Virus record (IMG/VR): IMGVR_UViG_3300032253_000016
Coordinates: 1-37,003 of that record
Direction: 5' to 3' (one strand)
From: a virus
Taxonomy: Duplodnaviria > Caudoviricetes
Length of the DNA stretch: 37,003 nt
Positions 5,083 to 32,142 of the stretch are shown here, piece by piece. Within the stretch, counting starts at the first letter, position 1. Each line of letters opens with the position of its first letter. The notes under the pieces are model-generated. The model saw nothing but the letters and a program-made list of their open reading frames with translations, made no database searches and was not told the origin of the DNA. The translations under genes were made by a program, and so were the position numbers.

Positions 5083-6804
5083 ATGCAACAAACAACTCAA
5101 AAAATCGAATTAGTGGAAGGACAAGTTAGCCAAATTCCTTTAGAACTCATCGACAGAGATGAAAATCAACCACGAACGCATTTCGATTCAGACTGGCTAA
5201 AAGAGCTGGGCGCAGACATTAAAAAAAATAGCGTACAACAACCTGTTACGTTGCGTCCTAATCCAAAGGCAACAGGTCGCTACATAATCGTTTATGGAGA
5301 AAACCGCGTTAACGCTAGTCGTCTCGTTAAAATGCCAACTGTTCCTGCACTGCTTTACAAAGGAAAAACAGAAGGAAAAACCGCAGACCTAGAACTACTA
5401 CTCAGCCAAGTAAAAGAAAATACTTTACGTAAAGAATTGAACGCAATGGACTGGGCACACTTATTTCATACCATGAATAAAGAACACGGTATGACACAAC
5501 CACAAATTGAAGCATCACTTAAAAAACATGGTGTGGGTAATTATGGACGCAGTTATATCTCCAACATCATCATGCTTCGCAAACTGCCTGATTGGGCGCA
5601 AGAAATGGTGCGCAATGAAACTATAACACCAGCACACGGTAAGTACTTATTACCGGCAATGGTCAGTGAAGAAGTCAGCGCAAATATTAAAACGAAATTT
5701 GAAAGTGACGAAAAATGGACGCCGACCGTACGTGAATTACAAAATGAAATATATATAAAATTTGTCCGTCAGCACGATGAAATTACGGGGTTCAAAACTA
5801 ACTTCGATTATAAAAAGAAGTGCATAGCTTCAGGTTGCAAAAACAATTGCAAAATTAGTGCTGATGAAACCAACGGAATTTTTTGTTTAGACAAAAAGTG
5901 CTACTCAAAACTTCAAGCTAAAGAAGAACAAAAACGACAAAAAGCAATTCAGCGACAAAAAGATAAAGAAGAAAACAAAGAACCTGTTGAAGTAAAAGCA
6001 GATAAAAAAAATCGTGTTGATACACGACAGCTTGAATTATGTCCTGAATATTTCCCTCTAGAAGATGCTGAATTCAATAAAACTGAATGTGAAAACTGTC
6101 CTCATAATCATATAGCAATATCAGAAGGACAATTCCAAGAAGACAATGACGTTATTGAGCAAAACGCATGCTTCAATGAACCTTGCTTTGATAAAAAGGA
6201 AGAACTGCACAGCCAGGCTACTCGAACCATTGAGCATCACATGCTTAAACAAGTTGTTAACATGTTAAAAGATGAACCTGCGTTAGCGTTGAGGGTTATG
6301 GCGTGGATTGCATCTGATTGTCCAGATGGAATAAGACAACAAAAAGATGATGAGTATATAAGCTTTGACGGTTCTCCATGTCCAGCTGATGAAGAGGACT
6401 TTGAAAAAATTCTTTTCAAACATCAATTGTTTTCAGTGTCACAATTTTTAACTGTGGATGAAAAAGCTATCCCAGATCTTCTTGAAGTCATAATTATCGA
6501 AAGCTGGCTAAGTCGTCAACTAATTGAAGTGCTATGGAAGCGGTTCAAATATGAAATAACTGACTTTAAATTAGATGTTGAATACATAAATACGCTTCGC
6601 GAAAAAGAGCTTCGCGCGCTAGTAGAAAACACCTCTGACCTCCCTCCTGCTGTCTTTGCCGATCTTAATACTGAAGGTACAAATGAAAATATTGATTCAT
6701 TACGTAAAAAAGTCATTAGTCATTTAAAGTTTTTTAAAGCGCCGGTTAATGATCTTCATCATGCTTATCAAACTATGACAAAAGAAGGAGAATCTAATGT
6801 TTAA
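5083..6804 (+). CDS. Large ParB/RepB/Spo0J-family protein with Cys-rich central domain
   Basis: N-terminal IPLELIDRDENQPRTHFD, QPVTLR, YIIVYGENR and EN..R..LN ParB motifs plus HTH; two Cys4 clusters downstream. Confidence 0.88.
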   Translation: MQQTTQKIELVEGQVSQIPLELIDRDENQPRTHFDSDWLKELGADIKKNSVQQPVTLRPNPKATGRYIIVYGENRVNASRLVKMPTVPALLYKGKTEGKTADLELLLSQVKENTLRKELNAMDWAHLFHTMNKEHGMTQPQIEASLKKHGVGNYGRSYISNIIMLRKLPDWAQEMVRNETITPAHGKYLLPAMVSEEVSANIKTKFESDEKWTPTVRELQNEIYIKFVRQHDEITGFKTNFDYKKKCIASGCKNNCKISADETNGIFCLDKKCYSKLQAKEEQKRQKAIQRQKDKEENKEPVEVKADKKNRVDTRQLELCPEYFPLEDAEFNKTECENCPHNHIAISEGQFQEDNDVIEQNACFNEPCFDKKEELHSQATRTIEHHMLKQVVNMLKDEPALALRVMAWIASDCPDGIRQQKDDEYISFDGSPCPADEEDFEKILFKHQLFSVSQFLTVDEKAIPDLLEVIIIESWLSRQLIEVLWKRFKYEITDFKLDVEYINTLREKELRALVENTSDLPPAVFADLNTEGTNENIDSLRKKVISHLKFFKAPVNDLHHAYQTMTKEGESNV

Positions 6805-7237
6805 ATTAAGCCACCGCTCAAAACGACGCCGCATTGGTGTTGACCTACGCCTGATTGAAATTAATGACTTAGCACTGCAAATATCCGTCATTGATTTTGG
6901 TATCCCCGAACACGGCGGTCTTCGTGATGCTGAAGAACAAAACCAGCTTTATTCAAATGGCTTTTCTAAAGCCGATGGATATATAAACCTAAGTCTTCAT
7001 CAGCCTGATGAAAATGGTTTCAGTCGTAGTTTAGATTTTTATGCTTATGTCAATGGAGCAGCGAGTTGGCAATCTCATCATCTTGCAATGGTCGCAGCGG
7101 CTCATTTACAAGCAGCCTCTATGTTGGGTTACGCCATTGAATGGGGTGGCTTCTGGAAACGTAAAACACCTAAATTTAAAAATGGCATCCCATATGGTTG
7201 GGACATGGCACACATCCAACTAGCAGAGGAGAACTAA
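6797..7237 (+). CDS. Endolysin, M15-family peptidase (L-Ala-D-Glu type)
   Basis: FKLS.RS, G.R..EEQ..LY, S.H, D, IEWGGFW and D.AHIQL zinc-peptidase motifs. Confidence 0.9.
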   Translation: MFKLSHRSKRRRIGVDLRLIEINDLALQISVIDFGIPEHGGLRDAEEQNQLYSNGFSKADGYINLSLHQPDENGFSRSLDFYAYVNGAASWQSHHLAMVAAAHLQAASMLGYAIEWGGFWKRKTPKFKNGIPYGWDMAHIQLAEEN

Positions 7238-7238
7238 A

Positions 7239-7808
7239 ATGGACTTCGGAAAATTATTTGATTCAATCAAAGGCCCACTATTAACCGCGGCATCAACATT
7301 AATACCAGGAGGTCCCTTAATTCTTGGAGCCGTTAACTCTATGTTGCCTGATGATGAAAAATTGCCAGAAACGGCAACCGGTAAAGATATCCGTAATGCG
7401 GTAGACAAGCTTAAGCCTAAACAGAGAATGGCATTAATGAGTAAAGAGCTAGATGTTGAAATCGAAGAAATAAAAGGTTGGGCATCCATACAAGCATCGC
7501 TCTCAGAGGCCGACAAAGCAGGCTCAAGCACACGACCAACTATTGCATTAATGATGGCGTGGTGTGTTGTTTTTGCAATCGTTGTTTTCATGGGAGCTTG
7601 GGTCACAGCAATAGTGATTGATGATGGTTTCTTAGTTGATTCATTAGGTGATTCATGGCCTTTATTTGCAACCGTTATCGGTACACCAACTTTGTTATTA
7701 CGCGCTTACTTTGGAATGCGCACAAAAGAAAAAACAACCCGCTATAACGCAGCATCAGGGCAACCAACAAGTGCAGTATCAAGCTTAATTAGCGCGTTCA
7801 GAAAGTAA
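7239..7808 (+). CDS. Holin-like membrane protein (3TM/GTA-holin-like)
   Basis: Directly after the endolysin; TRPTIA followed by hydrophobic helices and YFGMRTKEK. Confidence 0.75.
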   Translation: MDFGKLFDSIKGPLLTAASTLIPGGPLILGAVNSMLPDDEKLPETATGKDIRNAVDKLKPKQRMALMSKELDVEIEEIKGWASIQASLSEADKAGSSTRPTIALMMAWCVVFAIVVFMGAWVTAIVIDDGFLVDSLGDSWPLFATVIGTPTLLLRAYFGMRTKEKTTRYNAASGQPTSAVSSLISAFRK

Positions 7809-7839: not shown

Positions 7840-8064
7840 ATGACAATCCACCTTACAGAGCAAGAGTTATACGACATTACTCACAAAGTACGCTATCGTG
7901 CTCAATCAAAGGCGCTGGCACAAATGGGAATTGATTTTAAACTTCGCCCAGATGGGTCTATACTCGTCAGTAGGTCATGTTATGAATCTAGCATGGGTGG
8001 AAGTTCAACAACTAAAAAGGTATTGGCTGCGCCAGATTTCAGCTCATTATTGAATGTCTCCTAA
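7840..8064 (+). CDS. Putative excisionase (DUF4224-like)
   Basis: LTEQELYDIT...AQ..AL..MGI.F..RPDG...V and C-terminal PDFS; overlaps the integrase start. Confidence 0.85.
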   Translation: MTIHLTEQELYDITHKVRYRAQSKALAQMGIDFKLRPDGSILVSRSCYESSMGGSSTTKKVLAAPDFSSLLNVS

Positions 8065-9127
8065 AAAACGTAACAGTGAGAATACCCCATTACCAAAGCG
8101 GTGGCGATTAAAAAATGGCGCTTATCGTTACCGCGTCCCCCCTGGTTTAGAACATCTTTGGGACGGAAAAAAAGAATTTCGATTAGGTGCAACATTATCA
8201 GAAGCATATCGCACCTGGTCAGAACGACTTGAAACAACAGACCCAATTAATACTATCGATCAGTTGATGGATAGGTATATGCTCGAAGTTATCCCAGAAA
8301 AGGCTACCGGTTCACAAGAATCCAACTTACACAGTATTAAAAAGTTACGCCCTGTTTTTGGAAAAATGCCCCCCGCTCTTATCGAACCACAACACGCATA
8401 TAAATATCACGATATGGCCTCAAAGAAAAATGGTAAAACCGTGGCCAAGCATGACATTCAATTATTAAGACACTTACTAACAAAAGCAGTGGAATGGGGG
8501 GTGATAAAAACAAACCCGTTGCTCGGGCAAGTTCGTTTACCCGTTACGCTGCCACGAGATCGGTTTGTAGAAGATTGGGAAATAGAAGAAGCCTTATCGT
8601 TAACCCCTAAAATAAAGTCACGCGCAGTCACTCTCGCCAAATTATATGTGCGTTTCAAACTAATGACCGGCCTAAGAAGATGGGATATTTTAAAACTAAA
8701 AATATCCCAAATTAAAGATGATGGCATTCACGTTCAACCAACAAAAACAAAGAATACAACTGGCAAGCGTTTGATATTTGAATGGGATGAAGAAGGCGAA
8801 ATGCGCAATCTTATTGATGACATATTAAAGCTGCCCCCCCGCAGAATTGGTGATGTTTGTTTGTTTACAACGCGACAAGGAAAGTCATACATAAACAACC
8901 AGGGTAAAGCAAACGCATTCGATAGTTTGTGGCAGCGTTATATGAACAGGGTAATAGAACTCACAAATGTAGAAGATAAATTCCAAGAACGCGACCTGCG
9001 CGCTAAGGTTGCAAGCGACTCAGAAACCCTCCAAGAAGCCAGCGAACGGCTTGGTCACGGCACCACAGAAACCACGAACAAAGTTTATCGGCGCAAGCCT
9101 CTTCGCATAAAACCGCTCATAAAATAG
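8054..9127 (+). CDS. int: Tyrosine integrase
   Basis: Arm-binding N-terminus, TGLRRWD (Arg I), K, RDLRAK, LGH and VYRR catalytic motifs; adjacent to attP. Confidence 0.95.
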   Translation: MSPKKRNSENTPLPKRWRLKNGAYRYRVPPGLEHLWDGKKEFRLGATLSEAYRTWSERLETTDPINTIDQLMDRYMLEVIPEKATGSQESNLHSIKKLRPVFGKMPPALIEPQHAYKYHDMASKKNGKTVAKHDIQLLRHLLTKAVEWGVIKTNPLLGQVRLPVTLPRDRFVEDWEIEEALSLTPKIKSRAVTLAKLYVRFKLMTGLRRWDILKLKISQIKDDGIHVQPTKTKNTTGKRLIFEWDEEGEMRNLIDDILKLPPRRIGDVCLFTTRQGKSYINNQGKANAFDSLWQRYMNRVIELTNVEDKFQERDLRAKVASDSETLQEASERLGHGTTETTNKVYRRKPLRIKPLIK

Positions 9128-10102: not shown

Positions 10103-10792
10103 GTGGCAAAAAAAGACGATCAAATTCCCTTGATCGAAGAAAAACCAGAATCCAATCTATTTGGTGACTGTCTTAATGTATTGCTCGGTAAGGACGCTAA
10201 TTTAAGAAACAAACTGAAGGACAAAGGAATTGATAATGCAAAGATAACCAGGTGGACAAGCGGAACATCAAGCGTATCAGACGACGAGCTATTTCTGATC
10301 TCTGAAATTACAGGCATCAACCCGATAGAGTTAAGATTTGGAAAAAGAGCAGCATATAAATACGCGGAAAGCGTTATTACAAAAGATAGTATTGAATTAA
10401 TTTCACAATATCGTTCAAGTAGCGCGATACTTGAATGTATCTTAAGAATAATTGATAACGAGGTTTATGTAATAAAAAAAGGTAACGGTTTTGTTATGGC
10501 CTCTGAAACTGCATTAAAGCACTTGGGCCACTCAAAAAGCTCAATTAAAAAAGCAAATCCATACAAGGTGTTCCCTAGTATAGCTGACAGCTTTAAAGAA
10601 ATGGTCGATGATAAATTAGAAGAACACGGCGACACAACCAACTTACACTCAGAGCACATGCGTGATGATGGCTATTCATATTTTGTGAATTGCACACTAG
10701 AACTCGTAAAAACTAAAAATGATGGAGAATTTTTTATAGGAATTGGTCGCCACATTGATGGGTTACCAAAAGAAATTAAAGTAAAGGAGTGA
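10103..10792 (+). CDS. XRE-HTH + PAS/PAC domain transcription factor
   Basis: N-terminal GIDNAKITRWTSGTSSVSDDELFLISEITGINP HTH; C-terminal ILRIIDNEVYVI...FVMASETALKHLGHS...HMRDDGYSYFVNCTLELV...FIGIGRHI matches the PAS-PAC pattern. Confidence 0.8.
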   Translation: MAKKDDQIPLIEEKPESNLFGDCLNVLLGKDANLRNKLKDKGIDNAKITRWTSGTSSVSDDELFLISEITGINPIELRFGKRAAYKYAESVITKDSIELISQYRSSSAILECILRIIDNEVYVIKKGNGFVMASETALKHLGHSKSSIKKANPYKVFPSIADSFKEMVDDKLEEHGDTTNLHSEHMRDDGYSYFVNCTLELVKTKNDGEFFIGIGRHIDGLPKEIKVKE

Positions 10793-21202: not shown

Positions 21203-22606
21203 TTAAAAGATTGATTCAATGTAATCGTTCACCATGTGAGAACGGAATGTGATTTTTTCTGCTGGTGATGGCGGTGTAAAATCAAAATCAAAATAAACTT
21301 TACCTGCTGCAATTTCTGTTGGCGTATTTAGTTCAGGGTCTACCCAACATTCACCACCAAGAATTGCGCCGATGTTCTTTAAATGACGAAGATATGCATT
21401 AACACCTTCCGTTACATCTTCTAAATATGTTTTTGTGATGTTTCGGTCAACTGCCCACATGTGTGCTTTGAGTAATGATTCATTAATCATGTCAGCGGTA
21501 CGCACGACAGAAAGGAACGCCCACTTCGGATCAGAACTACAAGTACGATTACCCCATATGCGATAACCTTCTTTACGAATAATTGTCGCTACTTCATTTT
21601 CATTAAGGTAGTTAGCGCGAGAATTAGGATCACCAAGTGTAAAATCGACAGCGCGATCAGTTCCAACAATGCCATACATTTCTCGGTTAGAGGGAGACCA
21701 CCAGAAACCACGTTCATTATCTGACTTAGCAATCAAACCACAAACACGTGCAGAAGCCGGTTGACTCACAGCACTATTGCTGTCGGTGTCCCAAACCTTA
21801 GTCGCGGGGTCAACAACATAAACACGACGACTGCCATAATCATTACGATAAGTAATCGCATCAGCATCATTTGTATTTGGCCCGTCAGCAATTATTGCTG
21901 AACGTAATTGATCAGCAATACCTAACATTTCAGCCACAACAGGGTTAACTAAACCGCCAGGGCGATCAGATGTATAACCAGGAGCACATAAAAGTTTAGG
22001 CGCAACATGCACAACCGACTCAGCAGCCAGTAATGCATGAACACCTGTGTAAGCACCAGTCCCTCCATCAACGCCACCAAGTACATCTGCGCTCGTGACT
22101 AATGATGCATCAGGGCGATCATATGCAATATTAAGCGTAGCACCCGCTGCAATACTACCTGTGCTGACGCGCGTAAATACACCTGTATCACTATCAAAGG
22201 TGTAATCGGTATCTATTACATATGTTGTAACATTATCTTCCGACTTAACAACTTCATTTAAAATATAATCGTGTGCAACTTCCAATGTATTTTTGGTTGC
22301 ATCAAGCGTATAAGCTGTTGAAGCAACCGCTGCCTTATGAGTAGCAGGGTCTAACACATTAATCACCACAACCACTGCACCAGCCATATCAAAAATTGCA
22401 TCAAGCGCATCAGGGATGGTGCCAATATCTAAACCAAATTGTTTAACCGCTTCTGTACGACTTCCAACGATTAATGTTGGAACATTAACAGGGCCTTTAG
22501 GTGCTGCACCGACTAAACCAATAACGCTAGAGCGAACAGTTTGAATTGGCCGTGCGCCTTCGTCGATCTCAACGACTTCGATTCCATGTAAGAATTGTTC
22601 GGGCAT
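21203..22606 (-). CDS. Tail sheath protein (P2 FI-like)
   Basis: FLHGIEVVEI, GFWWSPSN, LNENEVATII, WGNRT and P..PAE motifs. Confidence 0.96.
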   Translation of the reverse strand: MPEQFLHGIEVVEIDEGARPIQTVRSSVIGLVGAAPKGPVNVPTLIVGSRTEAVKQFGLDIGTIPDALDAIFDMAGAVVVVINVLDPATHKAAVASTAYTLDATKNTLEVAHDYILNEVVKSEDNVTTYVIDTDYTFDSDTGVFTRVSTGSIAAGATLNIAYDRPDASLVTSADVLGGVDGGTGAYTGVHALLAAESVVHVAPKLLCAPGYTSDRPGGLVNPVVAEMLGIADQLRSAIIADGPNTNDADAITYRNDYGSRRVYVVDPATKVWDTDSNSAVSQPASARVCGLIAKSDNERGFWWSPSNREMYGIVGTDRAVDFTLGDPNSRANYLNENEVATIIRKEGYRIWGNRTCSSDPKWAFLSVVRTADMINESLLKAHMWAVDRNITKTYLEDVTEGVNAYLRHLKNIGAILGGECWVDPELNTPTEIAAGKVYFDFDFTPPSPAEKITFRSHMVNDYIESIF

Positions 22607-22608
22607 GA

Positions 22609-22815
22609 TTATTTCGCTCCTTTGTCAGATTTATTTTTTGTTGTAGTCGGTTTAGTTTCATCAGGCTTACCAGTAGTTTTTTTAGACAAAACTATTTTTT
22701 TAGCAAGCACGTGATATTTCGCTTGCCGCTCAGTTAAATTCACCTTCCTGCCTTTGCGACACACTTCATCGTTAATATTTGTATCCACAAGAACGTCATA
22801 TTCTTCTTTTTGCAT
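22609..22815 (-). CDS. Hypothetical basic virion-associated protein (68 aa)
   Basis: Start ATG 22815 with GGGAG RBS; V.LTERQAKY motif; lies before the sheath gene. Confidence 0.65.
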   Translation of the reverse strand: MQKEEYDVLVDTNINDEVCRKGRKVNLTERQAKYHVLAKKIVLSKKTTGKPDETKPTTTKNKSDKGAK

Positions 22816-22831
22816 ATCAGTCTCCCGTGCT

Positions 22832-23041
22832 TTATTGCACCTTATAAGTTCCAGCAGAACTACCACCGGTAACGGGGACGTCTGCATTAGTTTGAATTTC
22901 TTCAATTATTCCTGCACATAACGCTGTTAGCATTGCATCACGATAAGCTGAAGGATCACCGCCACCATCAACCTGTACAGCAGGTACGGCATCCATTGCT
23001 GCTTTAACCTTTAGCATCATTGAATTTGAATCTAACGCCAT
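22832..23041 (-). CDS. Hypothetical protein downstream of the spike gene (69 aa)
   Basis: Starts immediately after the gpV stop; ends VTGGSSAGTYKV. Confidence 0.7.
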   Translation of the reverse strand: MALDSNSMMLKVKAAMDAVPAVQVDGGGDPSAYRDAMLTALCAGIIEEIQTNADVPVTGGSSAGTYKVQ

Positions 23042-23638
23042 TTACTTGCTCGCTTTAACTGTTGCAGAAATTTGTGGATGTGGCTGTCCCGTTATTGCAC
23101 ATCGACAATCTCCTTGAACAAGACCTTTAACTGCTCCACCGCCATCTAAACTAATGGTGTCTGCAATAACGCTGGCAGCACCACCCGCAGTTACATCAGC
23201 TTTTCCGCCAACAACAGCATCAAGATTTCCAGTTGTATTTAATGCAACATCACCACCATTGACTGTTATCGTCATCTTATGAGTCGTTTCGTTGTATTCA
23301 ACAAAAGAACCATCGCTATAATTTGTACGGCGTATTTTTGGATCTGCCGAAGGCGCAGGATGTGCGTTTGAATAGAGTGATGGTAATACCACTGCTTGCG
23401 CTGGGTCACCACAAGGCGATAACACCACAACTTGCTCACCCACCTCCGGTGCCCACCATTCAGTGCTTGCTCCAGCACGGCGTGTCAACCACGGCAACCA
23501 ACCTGTAGCGTTCCCACCAACTTCAACACGGATTAATGACTTTGGATAATCTGCTGAATGTACCGTGCCGAACTTAATTAAATTGAAAAGTCGGCGTTGT
23601 AACTCAACAATATCCAATTGTTGTTCGTTAGCGTTCAT
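23042..23638 (-). CDS. Baseplate assembly protein V (spike)
   Basis: TGWLPWLTRRAG...WWAPEVGEQVVVLSPCGD and C-terminal HxH-like metal site; start ATG 23638. Confidence 0.93.
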   Translation of the reverse strand: MNANEQQLDIVELQRRLFNLIKFGTVHSADYPKSLIRVEVGGNATGWLPWLTRRAGASTEWWAPEVGEQVVVLSPCGDPAQAVVLPSLYSNAHPAPSADPKIRRTNYSDGSFVEYNETTHKMTITVNGGDVALNTTGNLDAVVGGKADVTAGGAASVIADTISLDGGGAVKGLVQGDCRCAITGQPHPQISATVKASK

Positions 23639-23639
23639 C

Positions 23640-24137
23640 TTATGCATTAACCTGATTATGTGGTTCGTTATTAAATGAAACATAAAGTTCAGTCGGTAAA
23701 ACACCATCACCATCCCAAACTGACGTACCCACTCTAATGTCGTGATCCCATTCAACCGACCACACTTTGTAACCTTCTAATTCTTCTTTAAAATTATCTT
23801 CACCTACAAAATTAATTTTTGCAGCGCCGACCGGTTGACCAAAACGGCTGGCTTTATAAACAGCATGTGCCACGGTTATTGCAAGATTACGTACTTCTAA
23901 GTCTGCGTTATCTAAAATCGGATCATAAATACAATAAGCGCGCATCTTCACAGTTAAACAAAGCTGTTCTGTACCTTCATCTTTTGCAGGTTCAATAGAC
24001 GGGGCTGTTTCTAATAAAACACCTGGTAAGATAATTTTAGAATCGTGATCAAGATCAGGATACGCGGCACAAGATTGCAAGCCAGTAACATCCAGCAATA
24101 AACGTGCAGTAATTGCATTATGTAAATCAGTTAACAC
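23640..24137 (-). CDS. Tail completion/terminator-like protein
   Basis: LHNAI..., GTEQL, VWSVEW and GTSVW motifs; position between gpZ-like and gpV genes. Confidence 0.7.
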   Translation of the reverse strand: MLTDLHNAITARLLLDVTGLQSCAAYPDLDHDSKIILPGVLLETAPSIEPAKDEGTEQLCLTVKMRAYCIYDPILDNADLEVRNLAITVAHAVYKASRFGQPVGAAKINFVGEDNFKEELEGYKVWSVEWDHDIRVGTSVWDGDGVLPTELYVSFNNEPHNQVNA

Positions 24138-24669
24138 TTTTCATTACCTTATTAATTTCATAGTTAACTTCCTGTTCCATTAACACTAAAAAACGATCTT
24201 CAATCTTAAGATCCATTTCACGATAAACTTTGCTTGCTTGCTCGCTTATATCCAATTGTTGCTCATCAATCTTCAGTCTGGCTTTTCCCCGACGTTTAAA
24301 AACACCTTTATGACCAGATGGCATTGTTGCGACAAAACTTCCTGGGAAGCGGTGTCTACCCACTGTTACACCCGCGCGTGTTTGTTGTGGATTTCCTAAC
24401 ATGCTGGCACGAATTTTAAATAACCCCATCCAAACTTTTGCTTTTAAGGCACGAGGATCATCACGATAAATACGCAAACGTTTCTTAAAAAATTTAGCAG
24501 CAACTTTTGTTTCTTTACTTAATGCGCGGCTAAATTGAGTATTGACCCACTTTGCAGTTTTATACACTGTGCGATAAGCGGCCGCATGAATGCGTTCATC
24601 AGCTATACCAAGCGCACCAACCATATTTGCGTAATCTTGCTTATCAAAATCTAAAGTGATATCAATCAT
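24127..24669 (-). CDS. Minor tail protein Z-like
   Basis: Basic protein with GVTVGRHRFPGSFVATMPSGHKGVFKRRGKARL motif. Confidence 0.82.
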   Translation of the reverse strand: MIDITLDFDKQDYANMVGALGIADERIHAAAYRTVYKTAKWVNTQFSRALSKETKVAAKFFKKRLRIYRDDPRALKAKVWMGLFKIRASMLGNPQQTRAGVTVGRHRFPGSFVATMPSGHKGVFKRRGKARLKIDEQQLDISEQASKVYREMDLKIEDRFLVLMEQEVNYEINKVMKSVN

Positions 24670-26039: not shown

Positions 26040-27950
26040 TTATGAGTTAATGCAGAATGACTCAGAATGTCCGATAGCAACATCGGCATCCTGGAACACG
26101 CGTAACACTAAACCACCCGAACTAGCTTTCGCCGCAGTGTCTGGGTTAACGTCAAGTACGCCCCACATACCAATCATTAAGTCTTGCCAGTTACCAAACG
26201 CCATTTCGTTTGCAGCTAATTGGCTGGTAACAGAAAGCGGATGACCGTTAGCCTCGTTGTTGTCCCCCATTAAGAACATACCGCTACCTGCATCTTTTGG
26301 CGTGGTCTTCAAGTTGCCTCGAACACCTGCTGTCGTGACGTAAGCGAGTTTGCCTTGTAGCGCATCATCTGCCGCTACCGCCGTTTCAAAACCAACAAGT
26401 TCAGACCATGTTGGCTTACCTGCTGTCGCGATAGCTTGTGTGTTGATGCCGGTTAAATTAAAGATACCGTGAGGTTGATTATTTGTTCCTGTACCTTTCA
26501 ACGCACCGATATCCAGCGCTAAAGCAGCACCGCGAAGCAATGAGTTTTGTACTAAGCTTTCAACACTTAAGCTAGATTGTTTAAGCAAGCGTCGAGACAT
26601 AGGAACAGCACCAGCCAGTGTCTTTGGTGACATCTTGATTGTGCCAAAGCTACCTTCGCTATCTGGCACATCATCATCATCATCTAACCAATGAAATGTT
26701 GGCGTTAATAGTTCTCGTGGAATTTCAAGATTGCCCATAAGGCCGTCAATGACAGTTGCACCTAAACCCATCACCACTGAATTAGGGCGAAGAGCCTCGA
26801 TGAACATGCCTTCCATGTGTTCCGTTGCAATTAAATCAGCAGCATTGCCTGAGTTAAGAGCACGTGCATGCATCATGTTCAATTGTTGCATTTGCATTTG
26901 GCGAGAAGCGCTAACCATAATGTCTAGCGGTACAAAGAAACCTTTTGCATCACGATCTAATCGTTCAGAAATTTCGCGAGAGCACTCCATTTCAAATGCA
27001 GCTTCCTTTTGCATGTAAGAGTTATCGCCTTCTTTAGCCGCGACCACTGCACGAATAGCTTTAAACAAACTATAGCTACGTGTTTCTTTATCAGACAAAC
27101 CAAGGTCAGCAGCTGCTTCACCTGTACCAGCACGACCTTCATCCACTAAGTTATCTAAAATAGCTTTGCGGAATTCATCAGGTGAGTTGCCATTTTTAAT
27201 ATGAACATCGGCTAAACCGCGCGCACCATGATCAGCAAAACGCTCAGCCATAGACATAATGTCAGCAACACGAGTTCGTTCTGCTTCCCGAGCAGCGTTT
27301 CGCACTTCTTCTACTTTAACCGTTGGAGCAGTAGACGTTGTTTCTGCTGCACGGGTTGTTGATTCCGTGCCGCCTTTATTTTTATCTTTTTCAGACATAG
27401 TTCTTTCCTCAATTTCAATATCAAAATTAAAGGTGGCGGCACGACCGACACCCACGGTTGTATCAGCCGGTATAGGTAACAGGCTAATTTCATACGGTTC
27501 CCAATCAACAGCTCGATATATATCAGTACTATCATCACTGCTTTCCTCAAGAACCACTTTATGGACACGATAACCAACAGAGACATGCACCAACACGCCA
27601 TCTAAAACATCGCGAAATTTTTCATCGGCTAAAGTGGAATTTCCAAAACGAACGAGTGCGGTGCCTCGACGATTTTCAATTTTTACATTTTCGATTACAC
27701 CAATATGTTGTCCCCAGTCATGGAGGAATAACAAAGGTCCGCTATTACGCAACCGCTCTAAACGAACAGAGTCAGGAGAGTGATCAAGTATTTCAATGCC
27801 ATATCCATATCGATGCCATCCTTCAACCTCATCAGTCTCAGAAGAAAATGACAGTTCTACAGTGCGATCTTCCTCATTAACTGACTCACGTTTTAATAAA
27901 AAATTACGCTGAAATAATTCTTTGCTATTAATCGTTTTATTTTTTGACAT
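26040..27950 (-). CDS. Prohead protease-major capsid fusion (HK97 fold)
   Basis: N-terminal ELSFSSE, PLLFLHD, VSVGY and WEPYEISLLPIPAD protease motifs; C-terminal SPKT.AG...SRRLLKQS, G.G....P.GI and FGNW capsid motifs; start ATG 27950. Confidence 0.95.
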   Translation of the reverse strand: MSKNKTINSKELFQRNFLLKRESVNEEDRTVELSFSSETDEVEGWHRYGYGIEILDHSPDSVRLERLRNSGPLLFLHDWGQHIGVIENVKIENRRGTALVRFGNSTLADEKFRDVLDGVLVHVSVGYRVHKVVLEESSDDSTDIYRAVDWEPYEISLLPIPADTTVGVGRAATFNFDIEIEERTMSEKDKNKGGTESTTRAAETTSTAPTVKVEEVRNAAREAERTRVADIMSMAERFADHGARGLADVHIKNGNSPDEFRKAILDNLVDEGRAGTGEAAADLGLSDKETRSYSLFKAIRAVVAAKEGDNSYMQKEAAFEMECSREISERLDRDAKGFFVPLDIMVSASRQMQMQQLNMMHARALNSGNAADLIATEHMEGMFIEALRPNSVVMGLGATVIDGLMGNLEIPRELLTPTFHWLDDDDDVPDSEGSFGTIKMSPKTLAGAVPMSRRLLKQSSLSVESLVQNSLLRGAALALDIGALKGTGTNNQPHGIFNLTGINTQAIATAGKPTWSELVGFETAVAADDALQGKLAYVTTAGVRGNLKTTPKDAGSGMFLMGDNNEANGHPLSVTSQLAANEMAFGNWQDLMIGMWGVLDVNPDTAAKASSGGLVLRVFQDADVAIGHSESFCINS

Positions 27951-29502
27951 CAGACTCATCCTCTTCATTCTTTTTTGCGTTAGTCGTTGCCTTTGGCACA
28001 ATCGGTAACGTTATTTTTTTGTCTTCTAACATTTGTTGAAATTCTGCGATTTCATCTAGCAACTCGTCGATATCTACGCCCAAGGTGTCAGCTGCACGTT
28101 GCGGTGATGTCAAGCCAGCATTAATTGCCATGACAGTTGCTTGAATGTCTTTAAGTGGATCAACCCACGCCCAACGACGACCTTTCCAGTGGTGTTCACT
28201 GAATCTTTCTAATGCAATATCTTGAGGTAAGTTGTCACCAACACGACCATTAAGAACGGCCATGTTTAACCAACGCATAAAGATGACTTCTAATACGCCA
28301 GCGGCAAAGCTATCTTGCTTTACTTTCCAGCTTTCACGTTCTTCTAACGAACCAGAACGAATAGAAGAAAAACTAACCGACTCTAAATCACCCGTTAACG
28401 AGTGATAAGAAACATCTAGCCCCATCGCAATATCATGTTGATTAACTTTTAAAAAAGAGCCGTAAGCTTCATGAGGATACTTTGGGTCAAAGCCTGTAAA
28501 GCCATAACCTTCAGGCAGCATACCGATTGTGCCGGGATCAAACTCTTCAATAAGATCGGTATCATCACCTTCGCCCTCTTGATTATCAGCAACTGCATGA
28601 GCATTACCATCTGGGCTAGTATAAAAACCCATTTTACTTGCACCGGCGCGAGCCGCGACAATTGCCGCTTCTTGATATTCTTCAATATGATTCATTGTTA
28701 ACATCGCGCTACACATCCAGGTAGCAGCACGCAATTGTTCTGGTCGCTCTGAATTGAACCAATGAATTAAATTCTCAGCAGGAACACGCTCATGTTTTTC
28801 ATCGTGATTTATAAGCCCATCACGCTTACCACGTTTCAACCAATACGCTACAGGTCTATTTGCTTGATTCAGCTCAACACCTAATCGAACACGATTACCA
28901 TTTTTTAAATCTTCATTTAAGCGATGGTCAAGACGAGCAGGATCTAACAGCTCAACAACGAAACCCCAGGGGTTTCTTCGCGAAGGTTTAACATCATGCA
29001 TGCGTATTAAGCATTCACCATCACGGGCAGCTGTACGAATAGAAATACGTTCTATTTCTTTAAACGAATGACGCCCGCTAATTTCACAAACACCACGCTT
29101 CGCCCATTTTTTGAATTCGCTTTCAGTTTGTTTATTTCCTTTAGAATCTAATTTTCCATTTTTCTGTTTGCCTTTAACTTGCAAGTTAAAACCATCAGGA
29201 CCAACAATATGAATTTCATTTAAACGAAGGAAGCGGCGAGCAAGGTTACTGTTCTGTTCTTGTGAACGAGCACGAGCGCGTAATATATGAAGTTGAGTTT
29301 TTAGTTCTTGATTAATATCACCGCCAGCAGATAACCAGTCAGCAGTTAAGCGATCTCTATTTGCTGCTTTGAATGCGCGCTTAACTAAACGATGAGGTAA
29401 AGAGTAACGTAAATTACGAGGAGTCGAAGCCACCTTAACAACTTCTTGCTTGGAAGAATTATAAAATGGATTTCTAAGTTTAAGCATTGCATGATTATGC
29501 AA
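27937..29502 (-). CDS. Portal protein, lambda family
   Basis: LRARAR, RDGEC, RLGVELN...RPVAYW, RPEQLR, FSSIRSG.LEER and WAWVDPLKD motifs; start may be ATG 29487. Confidence 0.95.
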   Translation of the reverse strand: MHNHAMLKLRNPFYNSSKQEVVKVASTPRNLRYSLPHRLVKRAFKAANRDRLTADWLSAGGDINQELKTQLHILRARARSQEQNSNLARRFLRLNEIHIVGPDGFNLQVKGKQKNGKLDSKGNKQTESEFKKWAKRGVCEISGRHSFKEIERISIRTAARDGECLIRMHDVKPSRRNPWGFVVELLDPARLDHRLNEDLKNGNRVRLGVELNQANRPVAYWLKRGKRDGLINHDEKHERVPAENLIHWFNSERPEQLRAATWMCSAMLTMNHIEEYQEAAIVAARAGASKMGFYTSPDGNAHAVADNQEGEGDDTDLIEEFDPGTIGMLPEGYGFTGFDPKYPHEAYGSFLKVNQHDIAMGLDVSYHSLTGDLESVSFSSIRSGSLEERESWKVKQDSFAAGVLEVIFMRWLNMAVLNGRVGDNLPQDIALERFSEHHWKGRRWAWVDPLKDIQATVMAINAGLTSPQRAADTLGVDIDELLDEIAEFQQMLEDKKITLPIVPKATTNAKKNEEDESDVKK

Positions 29503-29551
29503 TAGCTATTTGAGACGGTTATATCACTTTTTAAAAAATATTTTTAATAAA

Positions 29552-29612
29552 ACATAACAGTCGCATAAGTCAGACCTCGCTATGCTCGGCTACTTATGAC
29601 TTGGTGTTATAA
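29552..29612 (+). repeat. attC-like site 1
   Basis: ACATAAC agtcg CATAAGT c AG a CC...GG CT ACTTATG acttggt GTTATAA. Confidence 0.78.
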
Positions 29613-29813
29613 GTCACTCGTTATCTTGAAAGTAAACGGCTCATTTGGTTTTTCGTGTTCGCGTATCGCGGCGTCTAGCTCTCGTAAATCTTCAATAATT
29701 TGTGACTCAGCAAATTTTTCTAGGCTTACAAAATAGTTTTTGTTTTTTGTTGAGTCGTTTCCGGTAACTATGTAGCCGTTGTCAATTCGCTCTATTGTTA
29801 CATCAATATTCAT
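29607..29813 (-). CDS. Cassette A hypothetical protein (68 aa)
   Basis: GGAGG RBS; I.IERIDNGYIV motif common in small phage proteins; stop TAA lies within R' of attC1. Confidence 0.8.
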   Translation of the reverse strand: MNIDVTIERIDNGYIVTGNDSTKNKNYFVSLEKFAESQIIEDLRELDAAIREHEKPNEPFTFKITSDL

Positions 29814-29833
29814 CTTGCCTCCGTGGTAACGCC

Positions 29834-29896
29834 TTATAACAAGGCGTTTAAAAATCGGACGCGATAAAGCCGCGCCGTTTAACTAAAACGTTATGT
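29834..29896 (+). repeat. attC-like site 2
   Basis: TTATAAC aaggc GTTTAAA aat CGG A CGCG ataaagc CGCG CCG TTTAAC taaaac GTTATGT; extra T in L'' and extra A in GGAC. Confidence 0.9.
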
Positions 29897-30175
29897 GTCC
29901 TTATGCTGATATAAAACACTTCCATCAACATTAAATATTTTCATTTTCCAATACGGGTGGCAGTTACGAACGCGGCCATCTGAATTAAACTTTACGTTTA
30001 AGTTTGCCGAACCATTGCCGCCAAAAACAACACCTTCTTCTTCGTCAACAGTGCATCGAGTTCCTTTTTTAATTTTCGGCAACCCTCTGTACTCGCATAC
30101 ATCATTAATTGCTGTTTGTGTGTTAGCCACTTTAATCTCCCGCAACGCTACGCGATGCTGTTCGTGTTCACGCAC
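29891..30175 (-). CDS. Cassette B hypothetical protein (94 aa)
   Basis: YRGLP..KKG.R....G.V...L.V.F......HP.W pattern seen in small phage proteins; stop within R' of attC2. Confidence 0.75.
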   Translation of the reverse strand: MREHEQHRVALREIKVANTQTAINDVCEYRGLPKIKKGTRCTVDEEEGVVFGGNGSANLNVKFNSDGRVRNCHPYWKMKIFNVDGSVLYQHKDT

Positions 30176-30209
30176 AAGCTGTCGCTAGTGCTTGGTTAAA
30201 ACTAAAACC

Positions 30210-30267
30210 ACATAACAAAACGCTCAAGAAATGGACGGCTTCGCCGCCACTTAGCTTTGCGTTATAA
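30210..30267 (+). repeat. attC-like site 3
   Basis: ACATAAC aaaac GCTCAAG aaa TGG A CGGC ttc GCCG CCA CTTAGC tttgc GTTATAA; canonical extra C in L'' and extra A. Confidence 0.92.
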
Positions 30268-30365
30268 CTCTTACCAGCAAAGCCGCAATAAAGCGGCTTA
30301 CCGGAAGTTGTCAACCTCTAAGGGCGTTACCCCTGCGTTATCATTTTCTTATCCTCTTGTATGAG

Positions 30366-30425
30366 TTAAAAAAATATTACGTCTTACTTCTTACACCCAA
30401 AAACCCCAATTAAGGGGCGTTATGC
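30366..30425 (+). repeat. Decayed attC-like site 4
   Basis: Intact right end CCCCAATTAAGGGGC-GTTATGC; left end GAGTTAAAAA versus expected GAGTTATAAC at the right spacing (60 bp); inner arms no longer pair. Confidence 0.45.
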
Positions 30426-30716
30426 ACCACATCCACATGGTGATCTTCCTACACCAACATCTACAAACCCTGTTCCGTGACAGTTTTCGCATGAGTCAAC
30501 CCACGCTTCAATTTCACGCCATGTCGATTCATACATAGGCCAATCTTTTTCTACAACAACACACTCAACCTCTGATTTTGCGCCTGTATCAATGTCGGGT
30601 TGTTTTGCGATTGACAGAGCTATAACAATATTTTCTAACTCTTCTTTCGCTTCATCGGTTAAATATTTTTCAATATCTTTACGCTTTAAAACTAAATATC
30701 TATTTTCTCTTTGCAT
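30420..30716 (-). CDS. Cassette D hypothetical protein (98 aa) with C-terminal zinc finger
   Basis: MQRENRYLVLKRKD...CVVVEKDWPMYE..W plus CENCHGTG...CGC; ATG 30716 lies in R'' of attC5 and the stop in R' of attC4. Confidence 0.8.
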   Translation of the reverse strand: MQRENRYLVLKRKDIEKYLTDEAKEELENIVIALSIAKQPDIDTGAKSEVECVVVEKDWPMYESTWREIEAWVDSCENCHGTGFVDVGVGRSPCGCGA

Positions 30717-30771
30717 AAAAAGCCCCTCTAGTTGATTTCTCAGTCGCAACAACTGAGCTTATGAGTTATGT
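30713..30771 (+). repeat. attC-like site 5 (R'' core mutated)
   Basis: GCATAAa aagcc cCTC T AGTTG ... CAACT GAG cttatga GTTATGT; TAAC has become TAAA. Confidence 0.68.
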
Positions 30772-31080
30772 GTGTGTTTTCTCGATTAATATAAAAGATA
30801 AATCAAGATAACTTTTACCGCTTAAGCTCATTGTCCATACCTGCCGATTATGTAGGCGCATTGTTGGACCATCACCAATAAGCTTTAAAGCAAATTTACT
30901 GAGTATCGACTCTATTACATCAAAAGGTGTATCTGGTTGATCGATCCAAGGAACACATATCAAGTCAAAGTCACTCGCCATTGAACCATGAACAGCCATT
31001 GCGTAACCGTGCAATCTGGCAATCTCTGCAAGCTTTGGATACATACTGCAATATAAAGGCGCATAATTAGCTTCTTTCAC
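30766..31080 (-). CDS. Minimal nucleotidyltransferase-like protein
   Basis: GYAMAVHGSMASDFDLICVPW matches the GSx(n)DxD polymerase-beta superfamily motif; GTG start in TAGTG overlap; stop in R' of attC5. Confidence 0.6.
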   Translation of the reverse strand: MKEANYAPLYCSMYPKLAEIARLHGYAMAVHGSMASDFDLICVPWIDQPDTPFDVIESILSKFALKLIGDGPTMRLHNRQVWTMSLSGKSYLDLSFILIEKTHT

Positions 31081-31388
31081 TAAACCCAGTACCATGTTTC
31101 ACGTTCTTCGATCTGAATAATGGTTCTTTCGTGCACGTGATACATCTTTGCTATAGCACACCGCGACAATTCTTTTTTTTCAATATGTGCTTTAATTTCC
31201 TTAACGCTTTTCGTAGTTAGTTTCGCCTGTGGTTTTGGCGCTCGAACACGATGCGTATTCATTGCGCGAAAAAATGTGGCACGAGATACATCAGCTAATC
31301 TTGCCGCCACAGTTCTGTTTAATGTAGCTATATCAAGATACATCATGACTTCACCTTTACTTAAAGCAACTTGTCCAGCAACAGGCAT
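31080..31388 (-). CDS. Double-HTH DNA-binding protein
   Basis: NRTVAARLADVSRATFFR (Fis-like HTH) and AKLT...IAKMYHVHERTI..I..R..W (second HTH). Confidence 0.72.
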   Translation of the reverse strand: MPVAGQVALSKGEVMMYLDIATLNRTVAARLADVSRATFFRAMNTHRVRAPKPQAKLTTKSVKEIKAHIEKKELSRCAIAKMYHVHERTIIQIEERETWYWV

Positions 31389-31597
31389 TAGAATCTCCTC
31401 GTTGTTATATCTGATGGGCTTATGTGATCGTTAATGTCGTAAACAGTGTCTTGCCAATAAAACAATATTTCATCACCATCAATACCGCCTAAAGTTACGC
31501 ATACATAAGACGACCCTGTGTCATAAACGCCAGGAGGTATTTCCCCTTTCATGATTTTATCTTCAAGCGCTCTTTCGATAATCTGGCAGGCATTCAT
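31388..31597 (-). CDS. Hypothetical protein (69 aa)
   Basis: TAATG overlaps with both neighbours. Confidence 0.6.
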   Translation of the reverse strand: MNACQIIERALEDKIMKGEIPPGVYDTGSSYVCVTLGGIDGDEILFYWQDTVYDINDHISPSDITTRRF

Positions 31598-32142
31598 TAT
31601 CTGAATCTCACTTTAACGCTGCGTGGCACGCGATCACCACGTTTAATGGCTGCTTGACGATCTTCGGTCGCTACTTCTGATTTATATTTATCACGCGCCA
31701 TAATTAACTGCTCTGGTTTACGCTCGATGGTTCGATCTCCAAAAGTACCTCGTATCATATCCAAGTCAGCTTTTGTTGCTCGATTTTCTAGAGCAGCTTC
31801 TAATGCTTCTAACATTTTGCGAGCGTGGCTACGTCCATCGTAAGGTGTTCCCTTGGATGGATCAGGCGTTATGATGATGACGCCTTGATTAATCACTTTA
31901 CGTTCATTGGCTGTGTTGGTTACATAAGCTGTCCAATCATATCGGCCTGGAATCCAAGCGGTTGTAACCGACGCTAATAAATTAACAGCATGGTCATCAT
32001 CACTGGCAGACGCATCAAAGTTATAAGCATTTGCTGCATTAAATAATGCGTAATGTAATGTCCATACACTTGCTGGATAATCAGGCAATGTAGCTGTCCA
32101 TTCAGCATTATCACCAACGGCTATTTTTTTTGGTTCACTCAT
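31597..32142 (-). CDS. Head completion / head-tail adaptor protein (gpW-like C-terminus)
   Basis: Follows TerL; DGRSHARKMLEALEA.LE.RA...I.R.....L...RD.YK.EV...V.VRF. Confidence 0.75.
   Translation of the reverse strand: MSEPKKIAVGDNAEWTATLPDYPASVWTLHYALFNAANAYNFDASASDDDHAVNLLASVTTAWIPGRYDWTAYVTNTANERKVINQGVIIITPDPSKGTPYDGRSHARKMLEALEAALENRATKADLDMIRGTFGDRTIERKPEQLIMARDKYKSEVATEDRQAAIKRGDRVPRSVKVRFR

Follow-up and report, generated by a model that had tools for sequence, protein, structure and literature searches.

The window, i.e. the whole stretch of 37,003 bases that was analyzed, is the record of a whole virus, which gene annotation describes as a temperate, contractile-tailed phage. Its plus strand carries the repressor, excisionase, and integrase genes, and its minus strand those for replication, terminase, head, and tail. 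An endolysin and a possible holin (6797-7808) are found in the plus-strand operon directly before xis and int, and a PAS-domain regulator (10103-10792) follows int. The cassette cluster that concerns us is bordered on its left by the portal gene (27937..29502, minus strand; PHROG 21, E 3.5e-92) and on the other side by the head-tail joining and HTH genes. The conserved HTH gene (31080..31388, minus strand) marks a variable slot before the portal gene; it is also present in 3 relatives, each with different DNA behind it, i.e. a methyltransferase-like ORF, read by eye, in L002, plain ORFs in L005, and an ordinary sense array in L004 (G004). The latter array (L004:6866-11635) comes right after the same HTH gene and encodes FRG, reverse transcriptase, and IrrE/M78 peptidase proteins, a cargo suggestive of defence; its contig stops short of the portal gene and may be a prophage edge. 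An imperfect direct repeat of roughly 45 bases lies ahead of the portal gene of the other relative (L005:7610-7740).

Five attC sites had been proposed in this slot, and 2 of these are sound. attC2 (29834-29896; 34.5 bits; crossover 29890|29891) and attC3 (30210-30267; 36.1 bits; crossover 30261|30262) are intact and have their top strand on the plus strand, with L boxes that pair at 6/6 positions plus an unpaired base, within a R''(RYYYAAC)-L''-L'-R'(GTTRRRY) hairpin. In 500 dinucleotide shuffles of 28501-32000, a same-strand pair of sites never appeared (0/500) and a single site appeared 9 times. Two others are present in altered form. Specifically, attC1 (29552..29612, plus strand; R' crossover G|TT at 29606|29607) is an atypical or decayed hairpin with both R boxes and an irregular L box, while attC5 (30713..30771, plus strand; crossover 30765|30766) is decayed, being a damaged copy of a site that is intact in 5 other phage contigs, with a 13-base loop deletion and a change of AAC to AAA. 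The remaining "attC4" (30395-30425; 3.9 bits) is no attC and was discarded; it looks like a terminator common to another phage. A generic repeat finder missed the attC sites, and an Rfam search returned no relevant family. An A+T-rich segment of 41 bp (29518..29558, plus strand) runs from GTTATAT to ACATAAC, with ends matching at 6/7 positions, and could be an ORF-less mini-cassette or the native portal leader; it is not a proven insertion point, because the sequence flanking the AAC on either side also occurs in relatives.

With neither an IntI nor an attI-like motif near the array, the window is not a complete integron; it has at least 2 attC on one strand within 4 kb without intI, which is the definition of a CALIN given in the passages of PMC4889954 available to us. 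The phage's own integrase (8054..9127, plus strand; excisionase in front) was considered as the acting enzyme and rejected, as it has no NCBIfam (TIGR02249) match and no alignment to the IntI of the related viral contig G001; it is a bystander and not an IntI. attC2 belongs to the same family as the site behind a sense ORF in L004, and sites near-identical to attC3 occur on other contigs of the same sequencing runs. Some of these attC3-like sites adjoin antisense starts and one precedes a sense ORF that has an RBS, which may point to a site family common to sense and inverted cassettes.

ORFs A, B, D, and E all run on the minus strand in the same direction as the head and tail genes, as the preliminary description reported, and their 4 stop codons are indeed the TAA that reads as G|TTA on the plus strand (G at 29606, 29890, 30419, and 30765). 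Cassette A (29607-29890) carries ORF A (29607-29813; 68 aa), which has its own RBS, ACGGAGG, in the cassette body. Cassette B (29891-30261) carries ORF B (29891-30175), likely starting from a GTG at 30130 with the RBS GGGAG, also within the cassette body. Segment C (30262..30419) is a phage intergenic module that contains neither an ORF nor an attC; its minus strand has a terminator-like hairpin (30418-30403), and its homologue is an intergenic sequence in Paraglaciecola JLT virus 2. The exact match to that virus, an identity of 27 bases, ends at 30420, at the G|T where cassette D starts, as would be expected had D inserted at a secondary G|TT site; we regard such an insertion as likely. An ORF-less module with 2 hairpins is common to 30262-30420 in the window and L022:3890-4027 (Paraglaciecola Antarctic JLT virus 2). 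Cassette D (30420-30765) carries ORF D (30420-30716; 98 aa) and ends in GTTATGC and GCATAAA. ORF E (30766-31095) has its stop in the R' of attC5 and no attC at its 5' end, the covariance model finding no site in 30772-31400; its start is likely a GTG that overlaps the HTH stop. The 7-mers at the cassette ends are complementary at 7/7 positions in A and B and at 6/7 in D. All 3 cassette ORFs (3/3) are antisense to attC, i.e. none has the co-orientation typical of integron cassettes.

The cargo resembles phage proteins, as was first suspected. ORF D matches PHROG 7810 (E 1.3e-17), ORF E matches PHROG 35913 from residue 6 onward (E 6.9e-31) and has relatives in 30 phage records, and ORF B has weak matches to PHROG 6245 and 2730 and relatives in 3 phage records. 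ORF A has 16 relatives, none with a functional name. Searches of Pfam and NCBIfam returned no match for A, B, D, or E, and the ESM Atlas no usable match for A or D.

We consider it probable that the integron cassettes in the window form a short cluster, partly decayed and lacking an integrase of its own, with genes opposite to attC, likely filled by an IntI acting in trans and likely read with the terminase-to-portal message. A scan for sigma-70 promoters returned 2 sites, both on the plus strand and fewer than expected by chance. Terminator-like hairpins on the minus strand number 4, against 1.8 +/- 1.4 expected, and they could cut read-through, which counts against this explanation. In attC2 and attC3, the central hairpin (29858-29876 and 30234-30250, respectively), when taken on the minus strand, precedes a T run and also scores as terminator-like, and these reversed hairpins could tune expression along the array.

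The orientation of the genes relative to the sites depends on the polarity of attC, which was originally assigned to the plus strand from the extrahelical bases. This assignment holds for attC2 and attC3, where both the model bits and an unpaired base on the plus-strand left arm agree, and the covariance model lists no minus-strand match at either site. It does not extend to attC1, which the model cannot orient (6.1 bits on plus and 7.5 on minus), although its nearest sites among 340 lean to the plus strand (score 47 vs 40.5); attC5 scores 8.6 bits on plus and 2.5 on minus. The polarity rule is based on the unpaired L-box base, and it returns the strand expected from the position of intI in bacterial arrays, as well as that of aadA1 of R100. 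The 40 bacterial attC sites behind the model (39 of genome loci and aadA1) were themselves chosen with this rule, so that the model is not fully independent of it. Folding both strands, which had been proposed as a way to find the recombining one, does not separate them (energy differences ≤0.7 kcal/mol), and neither do G:T count and skew. The canonical fold is a minority state on the bottom strand of attC2 and attC3 (pair probabilities of 0.04-0.25 vs 0.62-1.0 for aadA1), which also counts against the explanation we favor.

The similar folding energies and the slightly higher minus-strand score of attC1 could be taken to mean that the orientation is in fact ordinary, i.e. that the plus strand recombines, or that a phage IntI prefers the other strand, so that each gene travels with the site behind it. 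Some attC do recombine on the top strand at a low rate, according to the portions of PMC5027507 available to us. The scores of attC2 and attC3 favor the plus-strand polarity nonetheless, and sites of the same polarity in Pseudoalteromonas phage H101 recombined better on the bottom strand with IntI1, as stated in the accessible text of PMC9892861. Furthermore, the cassette adjoining intI in G001 has an attC at its 5' end only, and R' breakpoints are found in 2 shared cassettes and 1 deletion. For example, the window and G001 have 234 identical bases, which extend from the 29606|29607 crossover at the R' of attC1 across the gene and into the left arm of attC2, and the two diverge immediately on the attC1 side. 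Another cassette is shared by L302 and G001 from AAC to AAC, with the upstream attC included, and one contig (depth 3.3) skips L030 3095 to 3391, i.e. a gene and the attC in front of it. These 3 cases have breakpoints at R' and as such fit the ordinary bottom-strand reaction (PMC5027507, passages available). The compared sequences show that the mobile unit is a gene plus the attC in front of it, and recombination likely proceeds by the ordinary bottom strand, in this case the coding strand. An ordinary orientation is, in our view, extremely improbable.

Relatives of the cassette genes also bear on whether the cluster is, or recently was, mobile. Flanking of homologues by attC in other phages, an open question in the preliminary description, is found for close homologues of A and D, in inverted arrays, and not for distant homologues of B, D, and E (0 attC matches in 6 such loci among 12), which counts against our explanation. 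G001 has an identical copy of ORF A and G002 a homologue with 68% identity, and ORF D has a homologue with 79% identity in G003 (L028), all within inverted arrays in which small genes are separated by antisense attC sites. G002 is a 75-kb phage with 2 separate inverted arrays (21840-24268 and 37130-39136) and no IntI match. Four more phage contigs have inverted arrays without an IntI match, 2 of which are at least 98% complete. G001 shares its head module with the window phage (major head protein 41% identical), and both occur in the same microbial mat metagenome samples, where the contig with cassette A collapses to the summed depth of the 2 phages (164 vs 76 and 129 vs 46 in 2 runs), indicating that they co-occur. 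These runs, none of those listed being an RNA data set, may also be where the window DNA itself came from. A joint across 29152-30791 in the run contigs was set aside as unreliable.

Alternatively, the block may have been acquired from another phage in a single homologous or illegitimate recombination event, and be a dead relic with inert sites and perhaps silent genes. Two of the 4 sites are decayed, the array lacks an IntI and a nearby attI-like motif, segment C and gene E are ordinary phage sequence, and no excised form is seen among the contigs of 4 runs, where none skips cassette A or B; this last result also counts against our own explanation. A single transfer is difficult to reconcile with cassette A, whose base-identical copy in G001 has different neighbors on both sides; its neighbors differ among the window, G001, and G002, with G|TT breakpoints. 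The homologue of D in L028 likewise has other neighbors. In addition, attC2 and attC3 are intact, and A, B, and D are open and equipped with an RBS. We judge the relic unlikely. The same cassette also sets a limit on the preferred reading of a cluster filled by IntI in trans. Specifically, the attC2 copies (29607-29896 in the window, L030:2420-2707) differ at about 10 positions, some of them compensatory, and the body is identical, so plain cassette transfer is not an explanation, and this counts against that reading. This pattern suggests that gene bodies can swap between attC sites of one family.

To place the window in a wider context, we compared the longest ORF on each strand between neighboring attC sites near IntI-like genes. 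In viral contigs, 39 intervals were antisense, 15 sense, and 36 unclear (from 35 of 80 loci, these being the 80 most similar to the G001 IntI among 553 matches; 45/80 loci had no cassette interval, 36/90 intervals were unclear, and 2 loci were duplicates). By contrast, the corresponding numbers were 2, 42, and 12 in bacterial genomes (17/80 loci) and 0, 30, and 7 in metagenome contigs (12/80 loci), in scans that each covered 1/64 of the collection. Counted by locus majority, viral loci were 20 antisense, 5 sense, and 10 tied, and nonviral loci 0 antisense, 26 sense, and 3 tied, bearing in mind that cassettes are not independent and that many of the weaker genome loci are not IntI. Matches to PHROG at E 1e-5 were found for 20/70 antisense and 0/64 sense ORFs in 74 viral intervals, the antisense matches including some intervals called sense by length. 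A distinct, phage-associated class of inverted cassettes, as first proposed from the window, is therefore borne out by the survey: the class is real, and the window is a small, partly decayed example of it. Inverted cargo with a function is mostly linked to DNA modification or anti-restriction (L061, L065, L068, L070, L075, L083, L119, L126, L128, and L031), and includes methyltransferases, PAPS-reductase-like, radical SAM, Mom-like, and Lar-like proteins, an exonuclease, and a DHH phosphoesterase.

Two further traits that had been attributed to this class are not specific to it. A stop codon in the R box mirrors the ordinary case, as it is present in 23/39 inverted viral cassettes and 28/72 sense cassettes from bacteria and metagenomes, and because cassette ends are inverted repeats, a TAAC stop is expected in either orientation. 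A start codon and RBS embedded in attC were proposed for the cassettes as a whole; this stands for D, where the ATG lies within GCATAAA (30713-30719) and the RBS AGAGGGG 6 nt upstream in the attC5 arm, and not for A, B, or E. Among clear inverted cassettes, a start in R'' occurs in 1/35, and is a trait of the attC5 family rather than of the class. In this family, GGAG and ATG are built into the site, and the start lies in R'' in 3 of 4 contigs among those listed, plus G001.

The initial account, confined to the window, missed the IntI and attI platform that is present in related phages. G001 encodes a true IntI (422.8 bits vs a cut-off of 265) directly behind its array, with 6 attC sites upstream of intI. 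The array is located in the early operon after the repressor, and is followed by intI, a methyltransferase, and the phage integrase on the same strand. Among the same best 80 of 553 viral loci, 171 of 174 attC model matches lie on the strand opposite to intI, which indicates that the platform is regular and that the genes are turned. A motif, TAACAGRKATT..CGC, is conserved just before intI in G001 and 4 other viral loci, and is a candidate for the compact attI of one group of phage IntI. It was noted in L049, L059, L068, L070, and L075, about 50 bases before intI, and the attI-like AAC lies about 45 nt from the intI start in L049, L068, and L075. A LexA-type box is found in 0/19 inverted loci compared with 9/22 nonviral sense loci, by a pattern that is valid for some proteobacteria only. 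The short gap, together with the absence of a LexA-type box, suggests that the phage message covering the cassettes also includes intI. A quick IntI tree (51 rows from 240 loci) has 2 all-viral groups of 9 rows each (SH-aLRT 99 and 97) and other viral rows scattered, and the 10 label changes needed do not support a single origin. IntI-like genes without a clear upstream array occur in L046 and Virus Rctr41k; the latter has 1 or 2 long attC-like sites downstream of its IntI-like gene (L291:8415-9434), on the strand opposite to the genes.

What sets the polarity was previously sought in the strand that is single-stranded during phage replication. One displaced strand fails as a cause, because the attC top strand is opposite to the late genes in the window but coincides with their strand in G001 and L004. 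A related proposal is that replication acts through the fork, with the recombining strand on the lagging template and genes running with the fork, so that cassettes shuffle more. Bottom strands on the lagging template recombine more, and 25/30 chromosomal integrons avoid that arrangement, according to the accessible passages of PMC5371416; two-way replication starting at the replication genes would place the window array and the G001 array alike on the lagging template. The polarity of L004 is opposite in the same slot, however. As the cause of the polarity, this is very improbable; it could act beside the explanation we prefer, and a lagging-strand effect of two-way replication may add to the polarity. 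What the window, G001, and L004 have in common is that genes follow the local operon whatever the direction of attC.

The preferred explanation, a partly decayed cluster filled from elsewhere, can be set out as follows. An IntI provided in trans by a G001-like phage or by the host would insert cassettes at attC or at secondary G|TT sites, and cassettes would thus enter integrase-less phages during coinfection or lysogeny. Selection would then keep those that face along the resident operon, the reversed genes being read within the terminase-to-portal message, and later decay of sites (attC1 and attC5) would fix genes such as D and perhaps E. A tie between the window and a complete, IntI-bearing copy of the system in G001 is shown by the identical cassette. 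In complete phage integrons, transcription of the early operon would pass across the cassettes and on into intI, with any new cassette added at the end farthest from the promoter; an array placed in this way would need no Pc. From their orientation, reversed cassettes are predicted to be silent behind a host Pc.

A broader reading is that phages run an integron system of their own, with their own IntI lineages, compact attI, operon transcription, and traded reversed cassettes that are silent behind a host Pc, in which insertion at stop codons gives birth to cassettes and bodies swap. IntI targets GTT, the complement of a TAAC stop, so that insertion at phage stops would make new cassettes; gene E, with its stop in R' and no second site, and cassette A, with the same body and another attC, would be snapshots of cassette birth. 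Taken jointly, these propositions are possible and we hold them as rather doubtful.

Integrons are regarded as bacterial devices whose design makes genes face away from the integrase, and several have reportedly been described of late as anti-phage libraries (bioRxiv 2024.07.02.601686). If our reading is true, phages would also have in them a means for the modular swap of accessory, possibly counter-defence genes (e.g. methyltransferases and Mom-like, Lar-like, and PAPS-reductase-like genes). To our knowledge, how integron cassettes arise is still open, and reversed-cassette phage integrons offer a testable route to their origin. Tests are at hand, given that the cultured phage H101 already shows the layout.

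Compared with classical integrons (class 1 and Vibrio chromosomal), the phage arrays have the same attC anatomy and families, the same 7-base end repeats, and the same G|TT crossover, and the true IntI of the relatives is likewise divergent from the direction of attC. They differ in that genes are antisense, the attC comes before the gene, the array points into intI, the cargo is phage-like, and the 19 inverted loci have no LexA-type box by the pattern used; the window, in addition, is without IntI. Inverted-integrase integrons (PMC4889954, passages available) resemble the phage arrays in that the cassette genes share a strand with intI. In those integrons, it is intI that is flipped and found on the attC strand, whereas here the genes are flipped and intI keeps its regular relation to attC. 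SALINs, small CALINs, and attG (bioRxiv 2022.09.11.507474) resemble the window in that cassettes are found at GWT sites outside a platform and in that hairpin loss can fix a gene. Those systems are from bacterial chromosomes, with assays in E. coli and V. cholerae, and the passages available mention no reversed genes or phage targets. Our literature search, which lay mostly outside subscription journals, returned no description of reversed cassettes in phage integrons.

The closest precedent is provided by attC clusters without IntI in phages, which IntI1 recombines on the bottom strand (Qi et al. 2023; PMC9892861, accessible text). Two sites of phage H101 were assayed in that work. We find that H101 (L290; KR534323.1, 75919-77987) has 4 attC with the top strand on plus and all 15 annotated genes of the region on minus, a layout like that of the window. 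The accessible text describes the TJE1 and PH101 cassettes as "oriented in the same direction", as is usual for arrays in bacteria, and contains no mention of genes opposite to attC; the figures and Dryad file of that paper could show the H101 arrangement. In phage TJE1, sites and genes do agree, i.e. its cassettes are sense, which counts against our explanation. Lastly, the complete integrons in the available text of Qi et al. (2023) are captured host or class 1 integrons, whereas the arrays described here point to a phage-linked IntI platform and a shared pool of phage cassettes.
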